Below are positions 903 to 63,578 of a stretch of 64,000 nucleotides of DNA, piece after piece. The DNA is from an uncultured Acidobacteriota bacterium (GTDB taxonomy: Bacteria > Acidobacteriota > Thermoanaerobaculia > UBA5066 > DATFVB01), in assembly GCA_963813155.1 (NCBI GenBank), contig CAWEYG010000005.1:96001-160000 (forward strand), given 5' to 3'. Position 1 is the stretch's first letter. Each line of letters opens with the position of its first letter. A model generated the notes under the pieces. The model was not told the DNA's origin. It saw nothing but the letters and a program-made list of their open reading frames with translations, and did no database searches. The translations under genes and the position numbers were made by a program.

Positions 903-2438
903 AAACCGCCGAGAAACCGAACCGCGTCGCTCCGCTCGAAATGGACCCCGAGGAGTTTCGCCGCCTCGGGCGGCGTGTCGTCGACCGCGTCGCCGATTTC
1001 CTCGCCTCGCTTCCCGAGCGACGGGTTACTCCCGGCGAGACGCCCCGGCAGCTTCGGAAGCTTCTCGGGGAAGGCCTCCCTGCCGCTGCGCGGAGCGAAT
1101 GCCGAAGGATTGCTGGACGAGGCCGCGCAGCTTCTCATCGAACACTCGCTCTTCAACGGCCACGCCCGGTTCTGGGGCTACATCACTTCTTCGGCGGCGC
1201 CGATCGGAGCGCTCGCGGATCTCCTCGCTGCCGCCGTCAACCCGAACGTCGGCGCGTTCGGGCTCGCGCCGATCGCGACCGAGATCGAGCTTCAGACGAT
1301 TCGCTGGATCGCGGAGATGATCGGTTTCCCGGCGGACTGTGGCGGCCTTCTCGTCTCGGGAGGCAACATGGCGAACTTCGTCGGCTTTCTCGCCGGCCGC
1401 CGCGCGAAGGCGCCGTGGGACATCCGCGGATCGGGGAGCTCCGGCGGCCCGAAGATGTGCGCCTACGCGTCGGAAGAGACTCACACGTGGGTCAAGAAAG
1501 CGGCGGACCTCTTCGGCCTCGGGACGGATTCTCTCCGGTGGATTCCCGTCGATTCCGGCTACCGGCTTCGCGTTGACGCCCTTCGAGCGGCGATCCGTGA
1601 AGACCGCGCCGCCGGATACGTCCCCTTCCTCGTGGTCGGGACGGCGGGGTCGGTTTCGACCGGCGCGATCGATCCGCTTCCGGAGATCGCCGCCGTCGCC
1701 TCCGAGGAGAACCTCTGGTTCCACGTGGACGGCGCGTACGGCGGGCTGGCCGCGGTGCTTCCCGACGCGCCCGCCGCGCTGCGGGGCTTGTCGCTGGCCG
1801 ACTCGGTCGCGGTCGACCCGCACAAATGGCTCTACGCGCCCGTCGAAGCCGGATGCACGCTCGTGCGCGACAGGGCCGCCCTGGAGGACACGTTTGCCTA
1901 TCGCCCCCCCTACTACCACTTCGAGGAAGAGGACGAGGCCGTGAACTTCTACGAGCGGGGGCCCCAGAACTCGCGGGGATTCCGCGCCCTGAAGGTCTGG
2001 CTCGGCCTTCGTCAGGCGGGGCGGGAAGGATACGAACGGATGATCGCCGACGACATCGCGCTCGCGCAGAGGCTCTTCGAGAAGGCGGCCGCGACCCCCG
2101 AGATCGAGACGTTCACGCGAGACCTTTCGATCGCGACGTTCCGATTCGTGCCCGAGCGGCTTGCCGGAGCGGGGGCAGAGCACGGCGAATACCTCGATCA
2201 ATTGAATACCGAGCTCCTCACGCGCCTCCAGAATGGCGGGGAAGCCTACGTCTCCAACGCCGTCCTCGGCGGGCGATTCGTGCTCCGCGCCTGCATCGTG
2301 AATTTCCGCACCCGATCGAGCGATGTCGACGCGCTGCCGGATCTGGTGGTTCGGATCGGCCGCGAGGTCGACCGGGACCTCCGGGAGAAAGCGGAAGGCC
2401 GGCCCGGCATCCCCGAGGGAAGGAGAACGAATGGCTGA
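899..2438 (+). CDS. PLP-dependent group II (aromatic amino acid-type) decarboxylase, frameshifted at the G-run ~1067-1070
   Basis: N-terminus MDPEEFRRLGRRVVD is in one frame. The remainder has FWGYITS, SGGNMAN, WFHVDGAYGG and DPHKWL (PLP Lys). Confidence 0.85.
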
Positions 2439-3603
2439 GCCGGTCTGGGCCGATCTGGGCTCCGTGGAAAAGCTGAAAGAAGAGCTGAAGAAGAAGCCGC
2501 TTGCGCAGCTGAAGGTCGGCCGCACGCCGATCGCGCTGACGTACCGCAACGGGGAATTCTCCGCCGTCTCGGGAGTCTGCAACCATGTCGGCGGCCCGCT
2601 CGGCGAGGGGCGACTCGACGGGGATTACATCGTCTGTCCGTGGCACAACTACAAGTTTCACTTTCGGACGGGCGAAGGGGAGCCGGGGTACGAGGAGGAC
2701 AGGGTCCCGAGCTACGCGCTGCGGGTCGAAGGCGGTCGTCTCCTCGTCAACCTGACTCCGGCGACGCCGCGGCACAAGGTGATGCACGATCCGCATCCGC
2801 TCGAGAGGCCGTTGGCTCGGGCAGATGGCCCGACCCGCGTGCTCGGCATCTCGACGACGGCGATGGACACGGCGAACCCGCGCTATTCGACTTCCGACGC
2901 GCTTCTCGAAGCCGCGCTTGCGCATGCCTCCGGCGGCCTCGGGGCGGAGACGAAGCTGCTGAGACTGACGGAGCTTTCTTTCCGGACCTGCGAGGGTTAC
3001 TACTCGAAAAGCGCGCACGCCTGCACGTGGCCCTGCTCGATCACGCAGATGGACCCGAACGACCAGATGGACCAGGTGTACGACGCGATCATCTTCTGGG
3101 CCGACGTGATCCTCGTCTCGACGCCGATCCGCTGGGGCTCGGCGAGCTCGCTCTATTTCAAGATGGTCGAGCGGATGAACTGCGTCCAGAACCAGATCAC
3201 TCTTCGCGACCGCGTGATGATTCGCAACAAGGTCGCGGCCTTCATCATCACGGGCGGACAGGACAACATCCAGGCGGTCGCGGGAGAAATGCTCGGTTTC
3301 TTCGCCGAGATCGGATGCCTCTTTCCGCAGTTCCCCTACATCGCGCACTCGCGGGGCTGGTCCGCCGAAGACATGGAAAACAACATCTCCTACGTCCAGA
3401 AGAGCAGGGCGCTGAAGGAGGGCGCGGAGTCGCTCGTCGAGAGAGCGGTCGCGTTTTCCCGGACGATCGTGGAAACGACGCCGGCGCCGGAAAAAGTCAT
3501 GCGCGCCGGCCGAAAGGCCGACGGCCTCGACAACGCGGCGATGGGAGCGAACCTGCTCGCCGGGATGGCCGACGAAGGCGCCCCGAGGGACGAACCGAAG
3601 TGA
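2431..3603 (+). CDS. Rieske [2Fe-2S] domain fused to a flavodoxin-like NAD(P)H-dependent FMN reductase domain
   Basis: CNHVGGPL...CPWH Rieske motif, then CEGYYS..CTWPC and DVILVSTPIRWG in a flavodoxin-fold region. Confidence 0.8.
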   Translation: MAEPVWADLGSVEKLKEELKKKPLAQLKVGRTPIALTYRNGEFSAVSGVCNHVGGPLGEGRLDGDYIVCPWHNYKFHFRTGEGEPGYEEDRVPSYALRVEGGRLLVNLTPATPRHKVMHDPHPLERPLARADGPTRVLGISTTAMDTANPRYSTSDALLEAALAHASGGLGAETKLLRLTELSFRTCEGYYSKSAHACTWPCSITQMDPNDQMDQVYDAIIFWADVILVSTPIRWGSASSLYFKMVERMNCVQNQITLRDRVMIRNKVAAFIITGGQDNIQAVAGEMLGFFAEIGCLFPQFPYIAHSRGWSAEDMENNISYVQKSRALKEGAESLVERAVAFSRTIVETTPAPEKVMRAGRKADGLDNAAMGANLLAGMADEGAPRDEPK

Positions 3604-4469
3604 GCGGAGAGTGGCGGCGCCTCGGGGGCGTCGATCCGAAGGAGCTCTCGGCGGCGCGTCTCGATGTCCATTACGCCGCCCAGATCGTTTCCGCGATCGG
3701 CATCACGCACCTTCCCCACCAGCCCGACGACAGCCACACGAATCTGGAATGGATTCCTTCGAATGAAGCCTTCGGTGGGAACCTCGTTGGCGGATCGCGC
3801 GCGTTTCGAGGGGCGCTGCGGCCCGGCGACTTCACGCTGATGCTGCTCGACGAAGCGGGCCACCGGGAAAGAAAATTGCCTCTTTCGGAGAAGACCCTCG
3901 ACGAAGGGTACGTCTGGATGGCGGAGGTGATCGCGGCGGAGACCGGAAAGCCGATGAAACCTCTGGAGCGGCCGGCGTACGAGCTCCCGGAGCACGCCGT
4001 CGCGGAGGGCTCTCGTTTTTCGGTGCCGATGGAGGAGTTCCGCGAGATTGGCCGCTGGTACGGAAACGCGGCCTCGCTCCTGATTTCCCTGATGGGAGAA
4101 TTTTCCGAAGCCTCTTCCGTTCGCTGCTGGCCGCACCACTTCGACATCGCGATTCTCCTGACGCTCGGGGAGGGAAAGACGATCGGTCTCGGCCTCTCGC
4201 CCGGCGACGCGAGCTACGCGGAGCCGTACTGGTACGTCACGCCCTACCCGTATCCGAAGAACCCGGAATTGCCGCCGCTTCCGGAAAAGGGGCGCTGGCA
4301 CACGGAGGGTTTCTTCGCGGCGGTCCTGACCGGATCGGATCTCCTGTCCGGGGATCTCGGCGACCCAGCGGCAGCGGTCGGAGATTTTTCTTCGCGCGGC
4401 CACTCCAAGGCTGTCGCCGCTTCCTGGAATAGGAAGGCTCTTCGCTACTTCTGGCCGGCTGTGACCTGA
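3600..4469 (+). CDS. conserved hypothetical protein (DUF5996-like); true stop probably at ~4432 after indels
   Basis: The GTG start overlaps the upstream stop. Motifs CWPHHFDIA, GLSPGD..YAEPYWYVTPYP and WHTEGF are present. Confidence 0.6.
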   Translation: MSGEWRRLGGVDPKELSAARLDVHYAAQIVSAIGITHLPHQPDDSHTNLEWIPSNEAFGGNLVGGSRAFRGALRPGDFTLMLLDEAGHRERKLPLSEKTLDEGYVWMAEVIAAETGKPMKPLERPAYELPEHAVAEGSRFSVPMEEFREIGRWYGNAASLLISLMGEFSEASSVRCWPHHFDIAILLTLGEGKTIGLGLSPGDASYAEPYWYVTPYPYPKNPELPPLPEKGRWHTEGFFAAVLTGSDLLSGDLGDPAAAVGDFSSRGHSKAVAASWNRKALRYFWPAVT

Positions 4470-7400
4470 GGGATCGGCGCCGTCGTGTCGGACCGGTGGG
4501 CCGATTCGATCTCCTCGTGCGAGGGAAGGTTCGAATGCCCCGAGTGGAAGAACGTCGTGCGGTTCAGCACCTTTTCCTGGAATTCCTCGAGGTAGAGGTA
4601 GATCACGGGCGTGACGAACAGCGTGATGAACTGCGACACGACGAGGCCGCCGACGATGACGAGCCCGAGAGGCCGCCGCGACGCTCCGTCCGCGCCGAAG
4701 CCGAGCGCGATGGGAAGCGCGCCGAAGATCGCCGCGAGCGTCGTCATCAGGATCGGCCGGAACCGGTCCATGCTCGCGTCGTGGATCGCCTGCACCGCCG
4801 ACTCGCCGCGATCGACGCGTTGGCGGGCGAAGTCGACGATCATGATCCCGTTCTTCTTGACGATTCCCATCAACATGAACATTCCGACGAACGCGTACAG
4901 AGAAGCCTGCTGCCGGAAGATCAGGAGCGTGAGCAATCCTCCGACGAGCGCCGTCGGGAGCGTCGAGAGAACCGTCAAGGGGTGAACGTAGCTCTCGTAG
5001 AGGATCGCGAGGATCACGTACATCACGAAGACCGCGAGGATCATCAGGACGGTGAGGTCCCGGACGGTGTTCCTGAACGTCTCCGCCTCGCCCTGAAGGC
5101 TCGCGCGAATGCCGGCCGGGACGACTTCATGGGCCGTCTTGGCGATGAAATCTGTCGCCGGCCCGAGCGCGACGCCCGGCTTGAGGTTGAAGAAGATCGT
5201 GACGCTCGTGAACTGGTTCAGGTGGTTGACGGCCTGCGGGCCGAGAGATTGTTTCCAGGTGACGAGCTCCCGAAGCGGGACGAGATTCGCCCCGTCGTCG
5301 GACTTGATGTAGAGCAGGGAAAGGTTGTCCGCCTTCTCGCGGCCCTTGTCCTCGACTTCGAGGATGACCTGGTACTGATCGGCGGGTTTCTTGATCAGGT
5401 AGACATAGTTCTGAGAATAGGCGTTGCGAAGGAGAGCGAGGATCCGAGCCTCGGAAACGCCGTACGTCTTGGCTTGATCCCGCCGGATCTCGACGTCGAG
5501 GTTCGGCGTGTTGTTGAAGAAATCGGACGAGACGGTTTGAAATCCGGGATACTCCCGCAGTTTTGCCATGAGCTTTGTCGAAGCGTCGTAGACCTCCCCG
5601 GCGTTCACGCCGGACAGGGAATAGGCGTACTGTCCCTGGGCCTGGTTCGTCGCTCCGGTCGAGATCTGAAGGACGGGAAAGGGCTGCAGGAACGCAAAGG
5701 TCCCCGGGACCGAGCCGATCTCGCCCATGAGCTTGCCCGCTTCCTGATCGATCGGCGGCCGCTGCCCGGGGGGCTTCAGGAACGTGAAGATGAATCCCTG
5801 GTTGGAAGGGAGAAATCCGGAGATTCCCGCGACCGAAATCGTCGCGCGGATATTCGGGTCGCGCCAGAGCACGTCGCTCACGTTCTGCTGGATCGCGCGC
5901 ATCTGGTCGGGGGAGGAGCCCTCTTTCCCGAGGAAGACGCCGTTGATCACGCTGCTGTCGCCGGTCGGCAGAAAGGCCTTCGGAACCACGTAGAAGAGAC
6001 CGACGGTCCCGGCGAGGCAGAGCACCCAGATCAGCGCGGAGAGCCTCCGGCGCTCGAGAAACCACGTGAGGGAGGATCCGTATTTTCCGAGCACCCGCTT
6101 TTCGACGCCGCCGATCACGCGTTCGATCCAGGTCTGCCGGACGTCCTTGCCGCGGGGCTTCAGGAGCCGCGCGCACATCAGCGGCGTCAGAGTCAGGGAA
6201 ACCAGGCCGGACGCGAGGATCGACACGACGATCGTGACCGCGAATTCGCGGAAGATCCGCCCGACGAGTCCCGACATCAGGAGGAGCGGCAGGAACACCG
6301 CCGCGAGCGAGATCGTCATCGAGAGAATCGTGAAACTGATCTCTTTGGCGCCGTTCAGCGAGGCGAGCAGGGCCGGCTCGCCGCGCTCCATCCGGCGAAC
6401 GGTGTTCTCGAGAAAGACGATCGCATCGTCGACCAGAAACCCGATCGCGAGCACGAGAGCCATCAGCGAGAGGTTGTCGAGGCTGTAGCCGAGCGCCCGC
6501 ATCGCCATGAACGTCAGCAGCAGGGAAAGCGGAAGCGCGACCGCCGGGATCAGCGTGTCGGTCGCCCGGCCGAGAAAGAAGAAGATCACCAGAACCACGA
6601 GAACGAAAGCGATGACGAGTGTTGCCTGAACGTCGTTGACGGAGTTGACGATGCTTTGCGCGCGGTCGTAGATCGGCGTGACGCGCACCGAGCCGGGCAG
6701 CTCCGCGCTGATGACGGGCAGCAGATTTCGGATACTGCGCGAGACCTCGACGGCGTTGGCTCCCGCCTGGCGGTTGACCGCGACGACGACCGTCGCCGAC
6801 GGAATCGGATAGCCCTTGACCCAGAAGCGCATGCTGATGCGCTCGTCCTGGAGCGAGTTCGTCACGGTCGCAACGTCGCGCAGGCGCACCGCCGCCCCGT
6901 TCTTCGAACCGACGATCAGGTCGTCGTAGGCCCGCGCCGTGTCGAGCTGCCCCTGGGGGTTCAGCAGCAGGGTGCCGGAGGCGCTGTCGAGCTGGCCCGC
7001 GCCGGTGTAGCTCGTGCCGTTCTTGATGGCGGCGGCGAGATCGTCCACGGAAATGCCGCGGGCCCACATCGCGGAAGGGTCCGCCTTGATGCGAATCGCC
7101 GATTTCGTTCCGAACACGTTGACCCGCGAAACGCCCGGAAGGATGCTGATCCGCTGGCCGACCTGCGTGCTTCCGTAGTCGTAGAGCGCGCCGGGAGTGA
7201 CCGACTCGCTCGTCAGGGCGATGTACATGATCGGCTGGTCGTTGGGGTTCGTCTTGGAAAACGTCGGCGGCGACGGGAGGTCGACGGGAAGGCTCCCGGT
7301 CGCCTGCGAGATGGCCGTCTGAACGTCGGTCGCGGCCGCGTCGATGCTCTTTCCCAGCGCGAACTGAAGCGTCAGGCTCGTGTTTCCCTGCGTGCTTTTC

Positions 7401-57360: not shown

Positions 57361-58703
57361 CGGGCCTTCGCGTACTGCGGGTTCTGGGCGCGAAGCGCCG
57401 AGACCGCGCGGACTACCTCGCCGATCGTGTAATCGACCTCTTCTTCCGTGTTGAATCGGCCAAGGCCGAACCGCACGGAAGAAAATGCGAGCTCGTCGGG
57501 AACGCCGATCGCCTTCTGCACGTGCGACGGCTCGATCGAGGCCGATGTGCATGCAACCGTGTAGTCGACCTCTTCCTCCGTGTTGAAGCGCCCGAGTCCG
57601 AACCGCACGGAGGAGAACGCGAGATCGTCGGGCACGCCGATCGCCTTCTGCACGTGCGACGGCTCGATCGACGCCGACGTGCACGCGGCGCCGGAGGACA
57701 CGGCGACGTCGCGGATGCTCGTCAGGAGCGCTTCTCCCTCGACGTAGCCGAACGAGAGATTGAGATTGCCCGGCAGGCGCCGTTCTTCGGACCGGAGATT
57801 TCCGTCGGCGTCGATCTCCGGAAGCAAGGCGCCGTTCAGGTGCACTTCGTCGAGCTGCGAGGTGATTCCTTCGTGAAGCCGGTTTCGCAGCCGCCGCAGG
57901 CGGGCTGTTTCCGCGTCGAATTCCGCTTTCGCGAGCTCGCACGCTTTCGCGAGACCGACGATCCCGGGGACGTTCAACGTTCCCGACCGAAGGCCGTGCT
58001 CGTGGCCGCCGCCGTAGAAAATCGGCTGAAGCCGGACGCGGGGATTCTTGCCGCGAACGTACAGCGCCCCGGCTCCCTTGGGTCCATAAATCTTGTGGGC
58101 TGTGATAGATACAAGGTCAGCATGAAATTCTTCCACGTGGAACGGTAGTTTTCCGACGCCCTGAACGGCGTCGCTGTGAAAGAAGACTCCGCGCTCCCGG
58201 CAGAAAGCCGCGATCTCCTGGATCGGATGAACCGTTCCGATCTCGTTGTTCGCGAGCATCAACGTGACGAGGATCGTCTGTTCCCGGAGGGCGCCCCGGA
58301 CCTGGTCGGCCTCGACCCTGCCGAATCGATCCGGCGAGAGGTACGTGACCTCGAAGCCTTCCTTCTCGAGCTCTTTGCACGAATCGAGCACGGCCTTGTG
58401 TTCCGTGAGGCACGTGACGATGTGGTTTCCCTTTTCGCGGTAAAGGCGCGCGACGCCGAAGATCGCGAGATTGTCCGACTCCGTCGCTCCCGACGTGAAC
58501 ACGATTTCTTTCGCGGAGGCGCCGAGGAAATCCGCCACCCTCTCCCGGGCCTGGTCCACCGCGGCTTCCGCCTCCCAGCCGTAAAGGTGATTGCGGGAGG
58601 CCGCGTTTCCGAACGACGTCGTCAGGTACGGCATCATGGCGTCCAGGACTCTGGGGTCGATCGGGGTGGTCGCGTGGTTGTCCATGTAGATCGGGGTTTT
58701 CAT
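57357..58703 (-). CDS. iscS: IscS-type cysteine desulfurase with an internal 44-aa tandem duplication
   Basis: [51 protein letters not shown]. Confidence 0.92.
57426..57686. repeat. tandem repeat inside iscS, period 132 bp, 2 copies
   Basis: 57426-57554 versus 57558-57686: 14 mismatches in 129 bp. Confidence 0.95.
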
Positions 58704-58763
58704 GTTCCTCGCTCCGGACGCGATTTTACGCCCCATTTTCTAAATGGTAATCTTACGCTTCAG

Positions 58764-60353
58764 ATGTCCACGGTCCACCTGCCCGAAGACAAGGCGTTTT
58801 CGTTTCTCTCCGCTCCGCCGCGGGTGCAGCTCTCCCATGCGTTTTCGAGGCCGTTCGAGAACGTCGTCGCGGCGGCGAGGACGTGTTATTCGAGCAAGGG
58901 TGTCATCGACGAGGACCAGGCATCCCGCAATCCGGAGCGCCGGGACGCTCTCGCCCGCTCGATCTACGCCGCCGGGCACCACACGACGTTCCAGCACGCG
59001 AGCTTTCAGTTCACGATGTCGAACGTTTCGCGCCAGTTCCTGTGGTCGTTCCTCCACAGCCATCCTTTCTACAATTCCGAGCAGGTTTCGCAGAGGTACG
59101 TGGAGGTCAAGGCGGGCAACTTCGCGGTCCCGCCGCTCTTGCCGCGGGACCGGGAGCTCTACGAGGCCTGCGCGCGGCTTCAGAACGAGAATTACGCGAA
59201 GCTCACTCGGCTCCTCGTTCCGATTTGCCGCGAGCGGTATTTCGAGCTCTTCCCCGGCCGACTGCGCGGCGACGGGCCTCAGCGCTTCCAGTCTTCGGTC
59301 GTCAAGCGGGCGCAGGAAATTGCCCGTTACGTGCTTCCCGTCGCGACGTTCGCGTACCTGTACCACACGGTTTCCGGGATAACGCTCTTTCGCTACCACC
59401 GGCTTTGCGAATCGTTCGACGCTCCGACCGAGCAGAAATACGTCGTCGGCCGGATGATCGAGGAAGTCCTCGCGTTCGACCCTCTCTACGCAAGCGTCCT
59501 GGAAGACCCGATCCCGCTGGAGGAGACGCCCGAGTACCTCGTGTTCGAGCGCCTCGCGAATCGGAGCTCCGGCTCGGCGGAATTCCGCCGCGAATTCGAC
59601 GCTTCGCTCGGCGGGCGAACGTCTCTTCTCGTCGACGCGAAGGCGCGCAACGAAGAGATCCTGGCGTCGTCCGTGCGAGAGGTTCTCGGCCTCGCGAGCG
59701 CGGAAATGACCGACGACGAGGCGATCGCGCTCTGCCTCGACCCGGGCAAAAACCGGCTGCTCGGCGAGACGCTGACGTTGACGACCCACGGAAAGCTGTC
59801 GCGCGCGATGTTCCATCCCGGTTACACGTTCCGCAAGAAGCTCTCCCACACGGCCGACTCGCAGGACCAGCGCCACCGGATGACGCCCGCCTCGCGCCCC
59901 GCGCTCGGGGCATACCTGTCCGACGAGCCCGATTACCTCGTTCCGATGCTCGTCGACGAAGTTCCGGAGGCCGCGGCGCTCTACCGTGAAACGATGGAAG
60001 AAACGTGGAACGCGATCGGAAGACTGCGCGCGGCGGGCGTCGCGGACGAGTTCGCGGCCTATCTCCTGCCCAACGCCGTGCCGATCCGGTTCACCGAATC
60101 GGCCGACCTGCTGAACCTCCACCACAAGATGGCGATGCGCCTCTGCTACAACGCGCAGGAAGAGATCTGGAAGGCGTCCGTCGAAGAGGCGACGCAGATC
60201 CGCGAGGTGAACCCGCGCATCGGCAAGTGGCTGCTTCCTCCGTGCGGCCTGCGCCACGCCGCGGGCGTGCGCCCCGTTTGCCCGGAAGGGGACCGCTTCT
60301 GCGGCGACATCGTGTGGAAGAAGGACTTGCCGGAGTACCGCCGCAAGCTGTAG
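58764..60353 (+). CDS. FAD-dependent thymidylate synthase-like protein with two tandem ThyX domains
   Basis: AARTCYS, GHHTTFQH, SQRYV and ARYVLP in domain 1; QRHRM, YLLPNA, RLCYNAQEEI, C.EG..C in domain 2. Confidence 0.8.
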   Translation: MSTVHLPEDKAFSFLSAPPRVQLSHAFSRPFENVVAAARTCYSSKGVIDEDQASRNPERRDALARSIYAAGHHTTFQHASFQFTMSNVSRQFLWSFLHSHPFYNSEQVSQRYVEVKAGNFAVPPLLPRDRELYEACARLQNENYAKLTRLLVPICRERYFELFPGRLRGDGPQRFQSSVVKRAQEIARYVLPVATFAYLYHTVSGITLFRYHRLCESFDAPTEQKYVVGRMIEEVLAFDPLYASVLEDPIPLEETPEYLVFERLANRSSGSAEFRREFDASLGGRTSLLVDAKARNEEILASSVREVLGLASAEMTDDEAIALCLDPGKNRLLGETLTLTTHGKLSRAMFHPGYTFRKKLSHTADSQDQRHRMTPASRPALGAYLSDEPDYLVPMLVDEVPEAAALYRETMEETWNAIGRLRAAGVADEFAAYLLPNAVPIRFTESADLLNLHHKMAMRLCYNAQEEIWKASVEEATQIREVNPRIGKWLLPPCGLRHAAGVRPVCPEGDRFCGDIVWKKDLPEYRRKL

Positions 60354-60430: not shown

Positions 60431-60973
60431 ATGGGCGCCCTCACAATTATCGCTGGAGAACGGCTGGGAAAGGCCACGCTGGCGAAACGACGGAAGCTAA
60501 GAATCAGGCTGGAGACGATCGACACGGCTGCGACCCGCCTGACCGGCGTTCGTAGAACTCAAGAGTACGCGACACACGTTGCAGAGATTGACGAGGTTCT
60601 TTTCGAATACGCCCGCGAGTCTGACTCCGACGAACGGAAGAATATTCTGCGGACGCTCGAAGAGATCGTCGAGGATGAACCGTTGGCTCTGCCGACTCAG
60701 AGCATCGAAGAATGGAGCGATCAGCTCTCGCCCGGTGACGTGCGGAAGAAGGGCCTGCGACTCCGCGGCGGACGAGAAATTCGACCTTTCCTGAAGAGAT
60801 ACTTCTCGCTCCGGGCCAGGTCGGGGATGCGCACGCAGGCCGACGTCGCGAAGAAGGCCGGTCTCTCACGGACTCACGTTGCCTCTCTGGAATCAGGAAA
60901 TCACTATCCGCAACAGAAGACGCTTCAGAAGCTGGCGAAGGCCTTTCGCGTGGACGTTACCGATCTGATGTAG
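60431..60973 (+). CDS. protein with C-terminal XRE HTH and ~115-aa N-terminal extension
   Basis: TQADVAKKAGLSRTHVASLESGNHYPQQKTLQKLAKAF; AT-richer codon usage. Confidence 0.8.
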   Translation: MGALTIIAGERLGKATLAKRRKLRIRLETIDTAATRLTGVRRTQEYATHVAEIDEVLFEYARESDSDERKNILRTLEEIVEDEPLALPTQSIEEWSDQLSPGDVRKKGLRLRGGREIRPFLKRYFSLRARSGMRTQADVAKKAGLSRTHVASLESGNHYPQQKTLQKLAKAFRVDVTDLM

Positions 60974-61357
60974 TCACCGCCACGGGGGCTGGCCGTCCGC
61001 CAGCGCTTGTTTCAGTTTTCGAATTCGATGATCTGCGCGGATTCGGTCCGCTTTTGAGATCGCGTTGGTCTTTTTCCAGAACAGGTCGACTACGTAGATC
61101 GTTTTCGATTTCTCGTGGATCCAGAAAATGGCTCGGAGCCAGCCCCGTTTTCCGATCGCAGGGTGCTCGACCCGGAGTTCCATTCCTTCCCCGCACGGCT
61201 CGATTTCCAGCTCGGAAGTATTCGGGTAGAAGTGCAGCTTTCTTACTAGTTTGATTCCTTCGCGGAGTTGATCTTCAGAAAGCTCCTTCGATGCCCATCG
61301 CTGGACTATTGGGAGAGGCAGAACAACATACTTTGCGTCCAGGGGATTCTTGTTCAC
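60974..61357 (-). CDS. RelE/ParE superfamily (Gp49/HigB-like) toxin candidate
   Basis: GMELRV...LRAIFW...IYVVDLFWKKTN...RIR pattern. Confidence 0.65.
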   Translation of the reverse strand: MNKNPLDAKYVVLPLPIVQRWASKELSEDQLREGIKLVRKLHFYPNTSELEIEPCGEGMELRVEHPAIGKRGWLRAIFWIHEKSKTIYVVDLFWKKTNAISKADRIRADHRIRKLKQALADGQPPWR

Positions 61358-61837
61358 GACTCCGACGGTCCCCTCTTATTCGAGTTTGTGTACTCGTCGA
61401 CGAGCCGCTCCGCCTGTGAGGTCGCGTAGTACTGATCGCCTTTCTTGCCCAAATAACCCATGATGACCGCGCGACCGTACTGGGATTGAGCGGGAAGCTT
61501 TCCCTCTTTAGCATCCCGGAAGGCAGCGGTGATGTCCTTGAACCCAAATGTCTTGAGTTGCTTCTCCCTTTCCAGGTAAACCGCCAGCACCGCGATGCGC
61601 TTCGTCATTATTTTGTAGGCGAACTTCCGCAAGTATTCCTGAGGTGAGACGGGCTTTGAGAACATGGAGGCGATTCGCGGGGCGGTTCTTCGGCGCTTCG
61701 CCCCGTTCCTCCGCCTGAGGCTTTCCCCCGAAGGCGTCAAGGGCGTAAGTCAGGACGCGGAATCGGGAGGACTCGCTGAGCGGAGTGAGGATCTCGATGA
61801 GTTTCTTCAGAGCTTCGACTTCATCAGTAACATTCAT
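61354..61837 (-). CDS. hypothetical winged-helix-like protein, frameshifted at ~61680
   Basis: MNVTDEVEALKKLIEIL.PL...R.RVL.Y in one frame; SPQEYL...RIAVLAVYL...F.FKDI..AF...GYL in the next; GTGA overlap with the toxin gene. Confidence 0.55.
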
Positions 61838-61938
61838 AACATGGAAATAAGTATCATAAGTACTATGTACAGTCAAACTCGTGATCTGCTCGCCGGCGGA
61901 AGGGACATGCAAGAGAGAAATCGAGGATTCTCCGGCCC

Positions 61939-61969
61939 AAAAAAAAGGCGGGCCCTCGTGGGCCCGTTT
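61939..61969 (-). terminator. Rho-independent terminator
   Basis: Minus strand CGGGCCC-ACGA-GGGCCCG hairpin followed by CC and T8. Confidence 0.85.
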
Positions 61970-61990
61970 CGGGAAGGAAAGGAAGGATAC
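61939..61990 (-). ncRNA. candidate sigma54-dependent small RNA (~52 nt)
   Basis: Lies between a -24/-12 promoter and the terminator; CU-rich 5' arm. Confidence 0.5.
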
Positions 61991-62001
61991 CTACTAGTAC
62001 G

Positions 62002-62016
62002 GCAAAAGCCGGGCCA
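62002..62016 (-). promoter_or_regulatory. sigma54 (-24/-12) promoter
   Basis: Minus strand TGGCCCGGCTTTTGC versus consensus TGGCAC-N5-TTGC: exact spacing, one mismatch. Confidence 0.65.
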
Positions 62017-62096
62017 GGTTTCGATTTCGTCTTTTCAGTAATTTAGGAACGTCAGGCGACTGCCGTTTTGGCGATTCAGGACAAATCGTCCGATTT

Positions 62097-63578
62097 TCAG
62101 ACCACCGCGATCTCGTAGTGGGCGGCCGGAAGGTTTTCCTCTTCGCGAATCTCGATCGACGCCTCGAGGTCCCGCTCGAGGCCGTCGAGAATTCCGAGCT
62201 CTCCGCGCAAGGCCTTCACGACTTCCGGCGTCGAGCGGACGAGAACCGTCTCACCCGGAGTGAGAGAGCCCGAGAGCTTCAGAATTTCGCGCCGGATCTC
62301 GAGCGCGACGGTGAAATCGTTCTTGACCCGGCCGTTGCCGCCGCAGCACGGGCACGACCGCGTGAGAACGCGCTCGAGCGAGGGTCGCGAGCGCTTGCGC
62401 GTGACCTGGACGAGCCCGAACTCCGAGATCTGCAGGATTTTCGACTTCGCCCGGTCCTTTTTCATCTCGGACTCGAACGCTTCGAAGAGCGTCCGCCGGT
62501 GCTCCTCGTCCTCGAGATCGATGAAGTCGACGACGAGGATCCCGCCCAGGTCCCGCAGGCGGATCTGGCGCACGATCTCCCGGACGGCCTCGAGGTTCAC
62601 GGCGAGCACCGTGTCTTCGAGGCTGTCTTTCCCGACGAACTTTCCGGTGTTGACGTCGATCGAGACGAGGGCTTCCGTCGGGTTGATCACGAGATATCCG
62701 CCCGATTTGAGCCAGACCTTCGTCTTCAGGGCCTTTTCGATCTCGGCTTCGACGCCGAATTCTTCGAAAAGGGCGTCTTTCCGGTGGAGCTTGACGCGCG
62801 GAACGACGGACGGCTCGGTGACGTGAAGAAAATCGACGATCCGCCCGAAGGCCTCGTGGTCGTTGACCCGGACTGCCGCCACGTCCTCGGAAACGAGGTC
62901 GCGCAGCGAACGAAGAAGGAGGTCCTGCTCGCCGTGGAGCAGCGCCGGAGGCTTGCTGGAGTGGGACCGGGAGAGAATCGACTCCCACAGGGCCGAGAGG
63001 TAGATCCGGTCGGTTTCGAACTCCTCGGTTCCCCTTCCCTGCGCCGCCGTCCGCGCGATGAACCCGCGGCCGCCGGGAAACGCCTCGAGCGCGGCCCGCA
63101 GCCGCTCCCTCTCGGGCTCGTCCTCGATTCGGCGCGAAATCCCCGCCTTCGACGAGAAGGGCGTGTACACGAGGAGCCGGCCGGGCAGCGAGATGTTCGT
63201 CGAGACGCGCGCGCCTTTGGCTCCCATCGATTCCTTCACGACCTGGACGATGATGTGCTGCCCTTCCTTCAGGAGCGTGTCGATCGAGACCGCCGGGCGC
63301 GCGGATTCTTCTTCGGGCGGTCCGTCGTCGTCCACTTCCCACTCTTCGCGGACGTCGGCGACATAGAGGAACGCGTCCTTCTCCAGGCCGATGTCCACGA
63401 ACGCGGCCTGCATGCCGGGAAGCACTCTCGATACCTGCCCGAGGTAAATGTCGCCGACGGAGCCCTGCTTGCGGGGGCGCTCGAAGTACAGCTCCGCGGC
63501 GCGGCCGTTCTCCAGGAACGCGACCCGGGTCTGGTACGGGTTGCAGTCGATCAGGATTTCGCGGACGGTTTCAGGCAT
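62097..63578 (-). CDS. rng: ribonuclease G/E family protein
   Basis: GDIYLG.V..VLPGMQAAFVDIG, SIDVNTG, RLRDLGG..V.DFID, C..C.G.G. Confidence 0.93.
   Translation of the reverse strand: MPETVREILIDCNPYQTRVAFLENGRAAELYFERPRKQGSVGDIYLGQVSRVLPGMQAAFVDIGLEKDAFLYVADVREEWEVDDDGPPEEESARPAVSIDTLLKEGQHIIVQVVKESMGAKGARVSTNISLPGRLLVYTPFSSKAGISRRIEDEPERERLRAALEAFPGGRGFIARTAAQGRGTEEFETDRIYLSALWESILSRSHSSKPPALLHGEQDLLLRSLRDLVSEDVAAVRVNDHEAFGRIVDFLHVTEPSVVPRVKLHRKDALFEEFGVEAEIEKALKTKVWLKSGGYLVINPTEALVSIDVNTGKFVGKDSLEDTVLAVNLEAVREIVRQIRLRDLGGILVVDFIDLEDEEHRRTLFEAFESEMKKDRAKSKILQISEFGLVQVTRKRSRPSLERVLTRSCPCCGGNGRVKNDFTVALEIRREILKLSGSLTPGETVLVRSTPEVVKALRGELGILDGLERDLEASIEIREEENLPAAHYEIAVV

Follow-up and report, generated by a model that had tools for sequence, protein, structure and literature searches.

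We examined a short element on the minus strand of a 64,000-nucleotide (nt) stretch of DNA from an uncultured soil bacterium of the Acidobacteriota, class Thermoanaerobaculia (assembly GCA_963813155.1, contig CAWEYG010000005.1, positions 96,001 to 160,000); the whole of this stretch is referred to as the window. The element follows rng, a gene of the RNase E/G family, and an original prediction made from the sequence had taken it for the gene of a sigma-54-dependent small RNA (sRNA) of about 52 nt carrying a seed that resembles an anti-Shine-Dalgarno (anti-SD) sequence. The comparisons described below indicate that positions 62022 to 61939 are a real, conserved sRNA gene in its own right and not the tail of rng. 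The genome of the window (G000) was compared with two congeners of genus g1, G001 and the unpublished G002. Its family, f1, includes genera g1 and g2, and f2 and f3 are sister families in the same order. The features of the locus, in window coordinates, are as follows.

62002 to 62016, minus strand: TGGCCCGGCTTTTGC, a sigma-54-like -24/-12 block, read from the sequence, which sits in the spacer of an extracytoplasmic function (ECF) type promoter
62018 to 62022, minus strand: GAAAC, an ECF-type -35-like element, its AAC kept in G001 and G002; it also precedes the paralogues
61998 to 62001, minus strand: CGTA, an ECF-type -10-like element that is the same in each of the three genomes of the genus and recurs in the family's units B and C
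61967 to 61990, minus strand: the predicted 5' end and the CU-rich single-stranded arm GUAUCCUUCCUUUCCUUCCCGAAA (the seed), unpaired in the centroid fold
61939 to 61966, minus strand: an intrinsic terminator with stem CGGGCCC/GGGCCCG, loop ACGA, CC and U8, from the terminator scan and the fold
62072 to 62088, minus strand: a 17-bp palindrome, CGATT-N7-AATCG, 82 to 98 nt 5' of the predicted start (+1), a lead only, as a candidate site for a regulator or activator
62097 to 63578, minus strand: rng, upstream of the sRNA, from the list of open reading frames (ORFs) and a Pfam match to PF10150 at 327.6 bits
60431 to 61912, unstranded: an insertion of ~1.5 kb between a thyX-like gene and the sRNA terminator, context outside the unit, from the ORF list and Pfam

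The -24/-12 motif TGGCCCGGCTTTTGC lies at 62016-62002, and because its GC falls at 62003-62002 a sigma-54-type start is predicted, as originally proposed, at G 61990, 12 bases further on. The RNA predicted from this start runs for 52 nt, to 61939, as GUAUCCUUCCUUUCCUUCCCGAAA followed by CGGGCCC-ACGA-GGGCCCG, CC, and U8, a sequence identical to the one first written down. The accompanying description, an unstructured arm before a strong terminator with no coding capacity, was also borne out: the first 24 nt are unpaired in the centroid of the predicted fold, the terminator scan gave a stem of seven pairs at 61966-61949, all G-C, followed by CC and T8, and the ORF list holds no ORF inside the 52 nt. 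The minimum free energy of this RNA is -16.1 kcal/mol (z = -2.55), and 3 of 200 shuffled sequences fold equally well. The 80-nt stretch that follows rng (62096-62017) is AT-richer than the genome, whose G+C content is 66%, again as described. The element was single-copy in its own genome by BLAST. An Rfam scan of the window at E values up to 10, one of the checks proposed with the prediction, returned no match at the sRNA site, and the nearest result among relatives was a subthreshold match of one g2 unit to RF00519.

Two other readings of the element were rejected. It is not a small ORF: the RNA contains none, and the 38-aa plus-strand ORF at 61881-61997 covers 61881-61938, beyond the U-run, where homology with G001 ends. 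A Rho-utilization site was ruled out, the C-rich stretch being only ~24 nt long.

Conservation of the unit and its relation to rng

Within the genus, G001 matches positions 62249-61936 of the window at 91% identity and the homology ends directly after the U-run, and G002 carries an equivalent of 62088-61935 at 81% identity that abuts the 3' end of the thyX-like gene. When the window was compared with G002 segment by segment, the following identities were obtained.

Upstream segment: 46 of 69 positions identical
Promoter block, 62020-61998: 22 of 23
The 7 nt around +1: 3 of 7
Arm: 23 of 24
Terminator: 26 of 28
Downstream: unrelated

The comparison with G001 gave 23 of 25 identical positions in the arm and 5 of 7 in the 7 nt just 5' of it. 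Conservation in the genus is therefore concentrated in two islands, one over the promoter block and one over the RNA, the latter beginning at the predicted start. The 17-bp palindrome is identical in G001, and G002 keeps its half-sites at altered spacing.

We then looked for the unit across the order. RNase G was searched for in 61 genomes and the 330 nt 3' of its stop codon were read at 30 loci; 16 further f2 genomes were read afterwards, so that 46 genomes in all were examined for a unit next to rng. A search with the f2 promoter pattern allowing two mismatches gave no less noise than its reversed control and was used only to point to rng-adjacent copies missed before. A CU-rich arm, a GC hairpin, and a U-run were present near rng in 42 of the 46 genomes (6/6 in f1, 16/16 in f3, and 20/24 in f2), at distances from rng within about 0.65 to 1.5 kb. 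The relatives that carry the family are uncultured metagenome-assembled genomes (MAGs) throughout.

The f3 RNA consists of CAGCACGCGAUACCUUCCUUCCC, a 9-bp stem, and a U-run. A MAFFT alignment of 32 copies of all types left the hairpins out of register, RNAalifold finding only 3 pairs, and the covariance model R1 was therefore built from 15 f3 copies only. Thirteen of these 15 aligned copies carry the 23-nt arm CAGCACGCGAUACCUUCCUUCCC unchanged. The loop differs among copies, as does the DNA upstream, and one compensatory change is seen in the stem in addition to G.U changes. When 151 genomes of the class were searched, R1 matched all 17 f3 genomes and, more weakly but at full length, a few others, among them G141, whose arm is CACUCCUCCUUCCUUCCCC; at E values up to 0.01 it did not recover the copy in the window. 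The 21-nt core of the f3 arm was found in 90 stretches, which come without exception from species-representative MAGs of uncultured Acidobacteriota or Thermoanaerobaculia. A pattern scan of metagenomes with the arm of genus g1 returned 21 stretches, none of which was homologous. The arms of f2 read GCGCACCUCCUCCUCC, GCGCACACUCCAGCCUCUCCUCC, or GCGCACUUCCAACCUCCUGCC. Taken together, the patterns of conservation in f3 and in the genus indicate that the RNA is under selection, and it is this conservation, not the number of motifs, that places the feature above chance.

We considered whether the feature might be no separate gene but only the 3' untranslated region (UTR) and terminator of rng, perhaps an element of processing or stability, with promoter motifs that arose by chance. 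The unit has the orientation of rng in most genomes, and the number of promoter motifs alone is not significant. The terminator scan found no strong terminator between the rng stop codon and the hairpin, only a weak six-pair candidate at 62102-62088; the sRNA hairpin is therefore the probable end of rng transcripts as well, in agreement with the original proposal that the two genes share it. Placement in relatives argues strongly against such an origin. The unit is inverted relative to rng in genome G043. Genus g2 has two units, A and B, back to back near rng; unit A runs opposite to rng, and one of three genomes has the pair in the reverse orientation. At three f3 loci (L019, L022, and L024) another gene stands between rng and the unit, ~0.9 kb away. 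In G002 the unit is split from rng by an insertion element of ~2.1 kb (L010, G002:C203, about 2400-4540) whose ends are 19-bp inverted repeats (GGGGATAATTTACTTGACT), with a target duplication of 8 bp (CCGATTTG) and two ORFs, one of 315 aa that is transposase-like and one of 306 aa. In addition, the genome of the window has a paralogue at an unrelated locus, between rho and lemA (C1:451386-451427, minus strand; locus L077:1087-1150), with the arm UCUCCUCCUCCUUCCC, a GC hairpin, and a U-run, and in G001 this paralogue and its promoter-like elements are inverted as one piece between flanks of unchanged orientation. Promoter-like blocks stand at a fixed distance in each displaced or inverted copy, and conservation in f3 begins abruptly ~8 nt past the -10-like element. 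The inverted and displaced copies demonstrate that the link to rng is not obligatory, and we consider it highly improbable that the feature is only the end of the rng transcript. The possibility that the whole feature is a product of chance was rejected because of its conservation and these changes of orientation.

A further observation on the rho-lemA paralogue is that in G002 its terminator is tandemly duplicated and a gap of 1.6 kb precedes rho.

The insertion at 60431-61912 is missing at this place in both G001 and G002. The layout in G002, with the element abutting the 3' end of the thyX-like gene, argues that the ancestral order is rng, sRNA element, convergent thyX, and that 60431-61912 was inserted later. 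The inserted segment comprises genes for an HTH_3 protein (60431-60973, plus strand) and a Gp49-like DUF891 protein (60974-61357, minus strand), together with an ORF of 128 aa (61354-61740, minus strand) that matched nothing in Pfam, and an AT-rich promoter-like stretch precedes these genes. The segment looks like a toxin-antitoxin cassette of the HigB/HigA type. The thyX-like ORF (58176-60353, plus strand) is listed at 725 aa. Its Thy1 domain starts only at residue 223 and matches in two stretches. Translation probably begins at a later start than the one listed, and a duplicated ThyX fold may be present.

Promoter signatures of the sRNA family

The block TGGCCCGGCTTTTGC has the core of a sigma-54 promoter, with GG at -25/-24, GC at -13/-12, and 10 nt between the doublets. 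It departs from the extended consensus of sigma-54 promoters in its own genome, TGGCAC-N5-TTGCW, by a C for A at -22 and a C after TTGC; TGGCCC-N5-TTGC is the form of the flagellar sigma-54 promoters of Caulobacter. The presence of rpoN, proposed at the outset as a check, was confirmed (PF04552 at 224.8 bits), and the genome has 26 matches to PF00158, the domain of enhancer-binding activators of sigma-54. The frequency of the motif was compared with expectation in the window and in intergenic DNA of its genome, the intergenic counts resting on a crude GC3-based gene caller with 86% genome coverage. TGGC-N7-TTGC occurs 3 times in the window versus 1.12 expected, a number reached by 12 of 100 shuffles, and 38 times in intergenic DNA versus 19.8 +/- 4.7 expected. 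The whole of this excess is carried by TGGCA-N6-TTGC, with 22 occurrences versus 3.4 +/- 2.1 expected. TGGC[CGT]-N6-TTGC is found 16 times versus 14.9, and TGGCC forms 7 times versus 6.1 +/- 2.2, which places the variant in the window in the class that is not enriched.

ECF promoters combine a -35 AAC with a -10 CGT, 16 to 17 nt apart and 5 to 8 nt before the start. The window unit has both elements at N16, in CGAAAC-N16-CGTAC at 62023-61997, and TGGCCCGGCTTTTGC fills 15 of the 16 spacer bases between them. AAAC-N16-CGTA is itself enriched in intergenic DNA of the genome, with 17 occurrences versus 5.3 +/- 2.0 expected, and the control spacings N12 and N21 give 3 and 2. The genome has 14 matches to PF04542 (sigma-70-family region 2), 13 of them over the cutoff, and 12 of those 13 lie in ORFs of 177 to 224 aa, the size of ECF sigma factors; several of these ECF-size genes are preceded by AAC-N16/17-CGT(A). 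Both signatures predict a start at 61990-61992, and the position of the 5' end alone therefore cannot separate them.

The promoters of relatives form three classes, one each for f2, f3, and f1. In f2, TGGCA[CT]-N6-TGC was found in 20 of 20 units, and some 12 nt separate its GC from the start of a conserved GCGCAC block. Promoters of this kind are textbook examples for sigma-54, and a sigma-54-dependent sRNA with a CU-rich arm therefore exists in this order. In f3-type units, G[GA]AAT-N17-19-GTT stands 5 to 12 nt before the conserved block in each of the 79 distinct upstream sequences, and none of the 79 has a sigma-54-like motif. Information content in f3 peaks only at GAAAT and at (CC)nGTT and is near zero in the spacer, and this two-block arrangement resembles the promoters of ECF sigma factors when set beside their general consensus. 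In f1, unit B (g2) and unit C (the rho-lemA type, in g1 and g2) have AAAC-N16/17-CGTA, the rho-lemA paralogue having xAxAC-N17-CGTAGA in three genomes and its g2 counterpart AAAC-N17-CGTA, and the G141 unit has AAC-N17-CGTA. Unit B of g2 aligns with the window unit through promoter and arm and has GAAAC-N16-CGTA with no TGGC or TTGC. The only conserved element upstream of g2 unit A is CTGGCGCGAATYTTGAA (TGGCGC-N5-TTGA), which is sigma-54-like but has GA at -12. Conservation of the sigma-54 motif at this gene, one of the checks proposed with the prediction, gave a mixed picture: the motif is kept in all three genomes of genus g1 and canonical in the 20 f2 units, is present in altered form in g2 unit A, and is missing from unit B and from the 79 f3 sequences.

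If the sRNA were made only by sigma-54 RNA polymerase with an enhancer-binding protein, the AAAC and CGTA flanks would be incidental. TGGC-N7-TTGC does stand at the right distance from the point where conservation of the RNA begins, its GG and TTGC are kept in all three genomes of the genus, with two substitutions at the noncore positions -21 and -19, and both the canonical f2 promoters at the same place and the sole upstream element of g2 unit A point the same way, as do rpoN and the many activator genes. This strict dependence is nevertheless unlikely: AAAC and CGTA are also invariant and match those of the B and C paralogues and the enriched genomic class, the TGGCC class is unenriched, f3 lacks the motif altogether, and no clear activator site was identified. 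The opposite possibility is that transcription is driven through CGAAAC-N16-CGTA alone and that the sigma-54-like block is a relic or coincidence, as the alignment with unit B, the N17-CGTA promoters of the rho-lemA paralogues and G141, the related GAAAT-N17-(C)GTT of all 79 f3 sequences, the threefold and spacing-dependent enrichment of the motif class, and the similar motifs upstream of ECF-size sigma genes would suggest. A pure ECF spacer should drift, however, and the spacer of the same-class rho-lemA promoter is identical between G000 and G001 at only 6 of 17 positions. At the window unit it is identical to G000 at 15 of 16 positions in each congener, which argues that something within it is constrained. 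By our own estimate from intergenic frequencies, TGGC-N7-TTGC would fall in register with the start by chance at ~1e-4, and the sister family f2 uses sigma-54 at this very gene. We regard transcription by an ECF factor alone as less likely than not. Overall, the sequence comparisons slightly favor some involvement of sigma-54 at the window unit and give the involvement of an ECF factor about an even chance, the one not excluding the other. The original claim of sigma-54 dependence is partly supported: rpoN, the activator genes, and the f2 promoters speak for it, and the unenriched class of the -24 element and the ECF-type elements that enclose the block and recur in the paralogues speak against it.

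Several other promoter-like sequences were noted during this work. In the genome of the window, C2:725742 (minus strand) and C20:27190 (plus strand) have near-identical sigma-54-type promoters of the form TGGCAGC-N4-TTGC, followed by the same ~40 nt (CATCGAAGCTYTCACATGCCGCGTGCGCGGCACAG), with the nearest same-strand ORF start at 85 and 511 nt, respectively; the pair is possibly another sigma-54-driven noncoding RNA or a repeat. A sigma-54-type promoter at C1:108875 (minus strand), TGGCATCGGCGTTGC, stands 50 nt ahead of an ORF of 524 aa whose N terminus has a membrane or signal segment, and ~2 kb from a same-strand activator-domain match (C1:106322-106819). The promoter also fits GGAAT-N18-GTT, an example of how the two kinds of motif can coincide by chance. 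In f2, units of genus g3 (L143, L144, and L140) have a conserved inverted repeat, GCGCCG-TTYC-GGCGCG, after the rng stop codon and ~10 to 15 nt upstream of the -24 element, which could be an rng terminator hairpin or a regulator site. One f2 genome that lacks a unit beside rng has, at L172 (G007:C33:9550-9660), a canonical CTGGCATGCGGCTTGCGA with a GC-rich hairpin and ACACCUCCUGCCUCCUACC after it; this may be a second sigma-54-driven anti-SD RNA or one that has been displaced.

Predicted targets and function

The arm of the window unit is complementary to purine-rich SD regions (GGAAGG and AAGGA). The genome has 237 complements of at least 10 nt, and for 43 of them an ORF starts no more than 18 nt downstream, compared to 0 to 24 (mean, 8.8) for 20 shuffled arms. 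The longest genomic complement, 16 nt, falls on AAGGAAAGGAAGGAUA, 3 nt before the AUG of a gene of the HU family (PF00216), and the next longest is 13 nt. The duplexes predicted at this site have energies of -30.2, -25.8, and -35.0 kcal/mol in G000, G001, and G002; among 300 shuffled UTRs, 2, 3, and 0, respectively, did as well. In G002 the duplex grows to 20 bp: a G.U pair becomes G-C through a U-to-C change in the UTR, and two nearby changes in the sRNA add pairs. The ribosome-binding site of the HU-family gene is thus the best predicted target, within this genus only. Target prediction, as first proposed, yielded a complement of 16 to 20 bp in all three genomes of genus g1 and none in g2, f2, or f3. 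HU as a target for the whole family was rejected, since the pairing is significant only in the genus, and it is a genus-level lead rather than the core target of the family because no such pairing was seen in g2, f2, or f3.

The window unit has the features of a gene for a trans-acting sRNA, namely a predicted promoter of its own, a Rho-independent terminator with a U-run, and a conserved single-stranded seed, and Hfq is encoded in the genome. We give a probability of roughly three in four to the reading that it specifies a trans-acting sRNA of ~52 nt which, from its own alternative-sigma promoter, pairs with SD regions and represses translation. The sequence features, their conservation, the distribution of the family, the promoter classes of relatives, and the complementarity were shown directly; that the gene is transcribed, by which sigma factor, and that its RNA pairs in the cell and with what effect are inferred from them. 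In the mechanism that we propose, the promoter would give rise to an RNA of ~52 nt starting at 61990-61992, and its unpaired, pyrimidine-rich 5' arm would pair with the purine-rich SD regions, probably together with Hfq. This pairing would block binding of the 30S subunit and so repress translation. The sRNA would thereby give an alternative-sigma regulon a repressing arm, with the mRNA of the HU-family nucleoid protein as the best predicted target within the genus.

A number of observations weigh against this interpretation. The sRNA is a prediction from DNA sequence and its relatives are all MAGs, and conservation within the genus was read from three genomes, including the unpublished G002. 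In G001 the HU duplex is bulged by an extra base in the arm. Outside the genus the HU pairing was not seen, with z values between -1.7 and +0.8 in g2, f2, and f3, and in five f3 genomes the invariant f3 arm had no long complement except the gene itself and one site with three mismatches. To these are added the promoter findings given above: the unenriched class of the TGGCC variant, the f3 upstream sequences free of any sigma-54-like motif, and unit B with its purely ECF-type elements. What stood of the trans-acting, anti-SD sRNA first proposed is an independent unit with a conserved, unpaired CU-rich arm complementary to ribosome-binding sites; a target common to the family did not emerge.

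The missing family-wide target is also what would be expected if the RNA acted as a decoy, binding a protein or a ribosome-related factor that recognizes pyrimidine-rich single strands like the 3' tail of 16S rRNA. That tail reads GGAUCACCUCCUUUCU in the genome of the window, and several f2 arms contain CACCUCCU, identical to it; moreover, the invariant part of the f3 arm, 23 nt, exceeds the usual length of a seed. On the other side, no candidate protein was identified, the arms differ among families yet stay CU rich, which fits evolving seeds, and the complement of 16 to 20 bp to the HU site is kept in the genus, where the change from G.U to G-C preserves a pair and two arm changes add others. 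We regard a decoy as quite improbable and prefer an sRNA that pairs with SD regions.

A more speculative picture, and one that we consider rather doubtful, draws the promoter classes and the target together. The family would have kept its anti-SD arm while its promoter was exchanged between two unrelated systems, sigma-54 (as in f2) and ECF-type (as in f3); the genome of the window, with the sigma-54 block nested in the spacer of the ECF promoter, would be in the middle of such an exchange or have a dual input in which both fire at one start, and g2 would have resolved it into two divergent copies, each with one of the signatures. If such a nested dual promoter were real, one 52-nt RNA would integrate enhancer-dependent and envelope/stress signals and relay them to HU in this genus.

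Alternative-sigma-driven sRNAs with CU-rich seeds are already well known as a kind. Almost nothing is known of the RNA regulators of Acidobacteriota, and the family described here is sharply defined and easily recognized, with a 23-nt arm that is nearly invariant across many species-level genomes, so that hundreds of soil genomes can be annotated for it immediately. The family provides a natural comparison of sigma-54 and ECF-type promoter turnover at one gene and a handle on the signals that are coupled to translation in these bacteria, and it suggests HU as a concrete target, testable in a heterologous host.

Comparison with known small RNAs

The sigmaE-dependent sRNAs MicA, RybB, and MicL of enterobacteria supply a repressing arm to a sigma factor that by itself only activates. 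In sRNAs of the DapZ/MicL type, the RNA is embedded in a 3' UTR, has its own internal promoter, and shares the terminator of the upstream mRNA. The window sRNA is like MicA, RybB, and MicL in being short and in combining an alternative-sigma (in their case sigmaE, an ECF factor) promoter with a single-stranded seed for the repression of translation. MicL is reported to arise from within the cutC coding sequence (PMC4102768). The window sRNA differs from these three in phylum, has no sequence or Rfam relationship to them, and carries a generic CU-rich anti-SD arm where theirs are specific for porin or lpp mRNAs.

Known sigma-54-dependent sRNAs include Qrr1-5 of Vibrio and GlmY and GlmZ of Enterobacteriaceae, RNAs that are the subject of PMC3045617 and PMC10162802. 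The rng-linked units of f2 are similar to Qrr and GlmY in having a canonical -24/-12 promoter directly before a short RNA. Qrr, GlmY, and GlmZ are longer, have several hairpins, and show no homology to the family, and GlmY is a protein decoy. The window unit has a nonconsensus -24 element that overlaps an ECF-type promoter.

In target recognition the family resembles NfeR1 and MmgR (RF00519, suhB) of the alphaproteobacteria, where unpaired CU-rich anti-SD motifs, with a terminator after them, likewise pair with ribosome-binding sites. According to PMC10746234, NfeR1 has three anti-SD seeds and silences ntrB in the canonical manner, and its promoter is of the sigma-70 type, controlled by LsrB and NtrC; the motif CCUCCUCCC occurs once in this paper. 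The window sRNA belongs to another phylum, is shorter, and has its seed at the 5' end. Unit A of g2, the best of six related loci scanned, scored 31.4 bits against RF00519, below the gathering score of 41, and shares with it the layout of a small hairpin, a CU stretch, and a terminator. Membership in RF00519 was rejected on this score and on the lack of any match in the window at E values up to 10.

RsaE/RoxS and other Rsa RNAs of Firmicutes also recognize their targets through pyrimidine-rich (C-rich/UCCC) motifs that pair with SD sequences. Unlike the arm described here, their motifs are placed in loops of hairpins within longer RNAs. They have promoters of other types and show no homology to the family. 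Keyword searches of the literature returned no paper on Acidobacteria sRNAs with these features, which is not proof of absence. By these sequence comparisons, the window sRNA belongs to none of the families considered and represents a previously uncatalogued sRNA family that extends across one order of the Thermoanaerobaculia.

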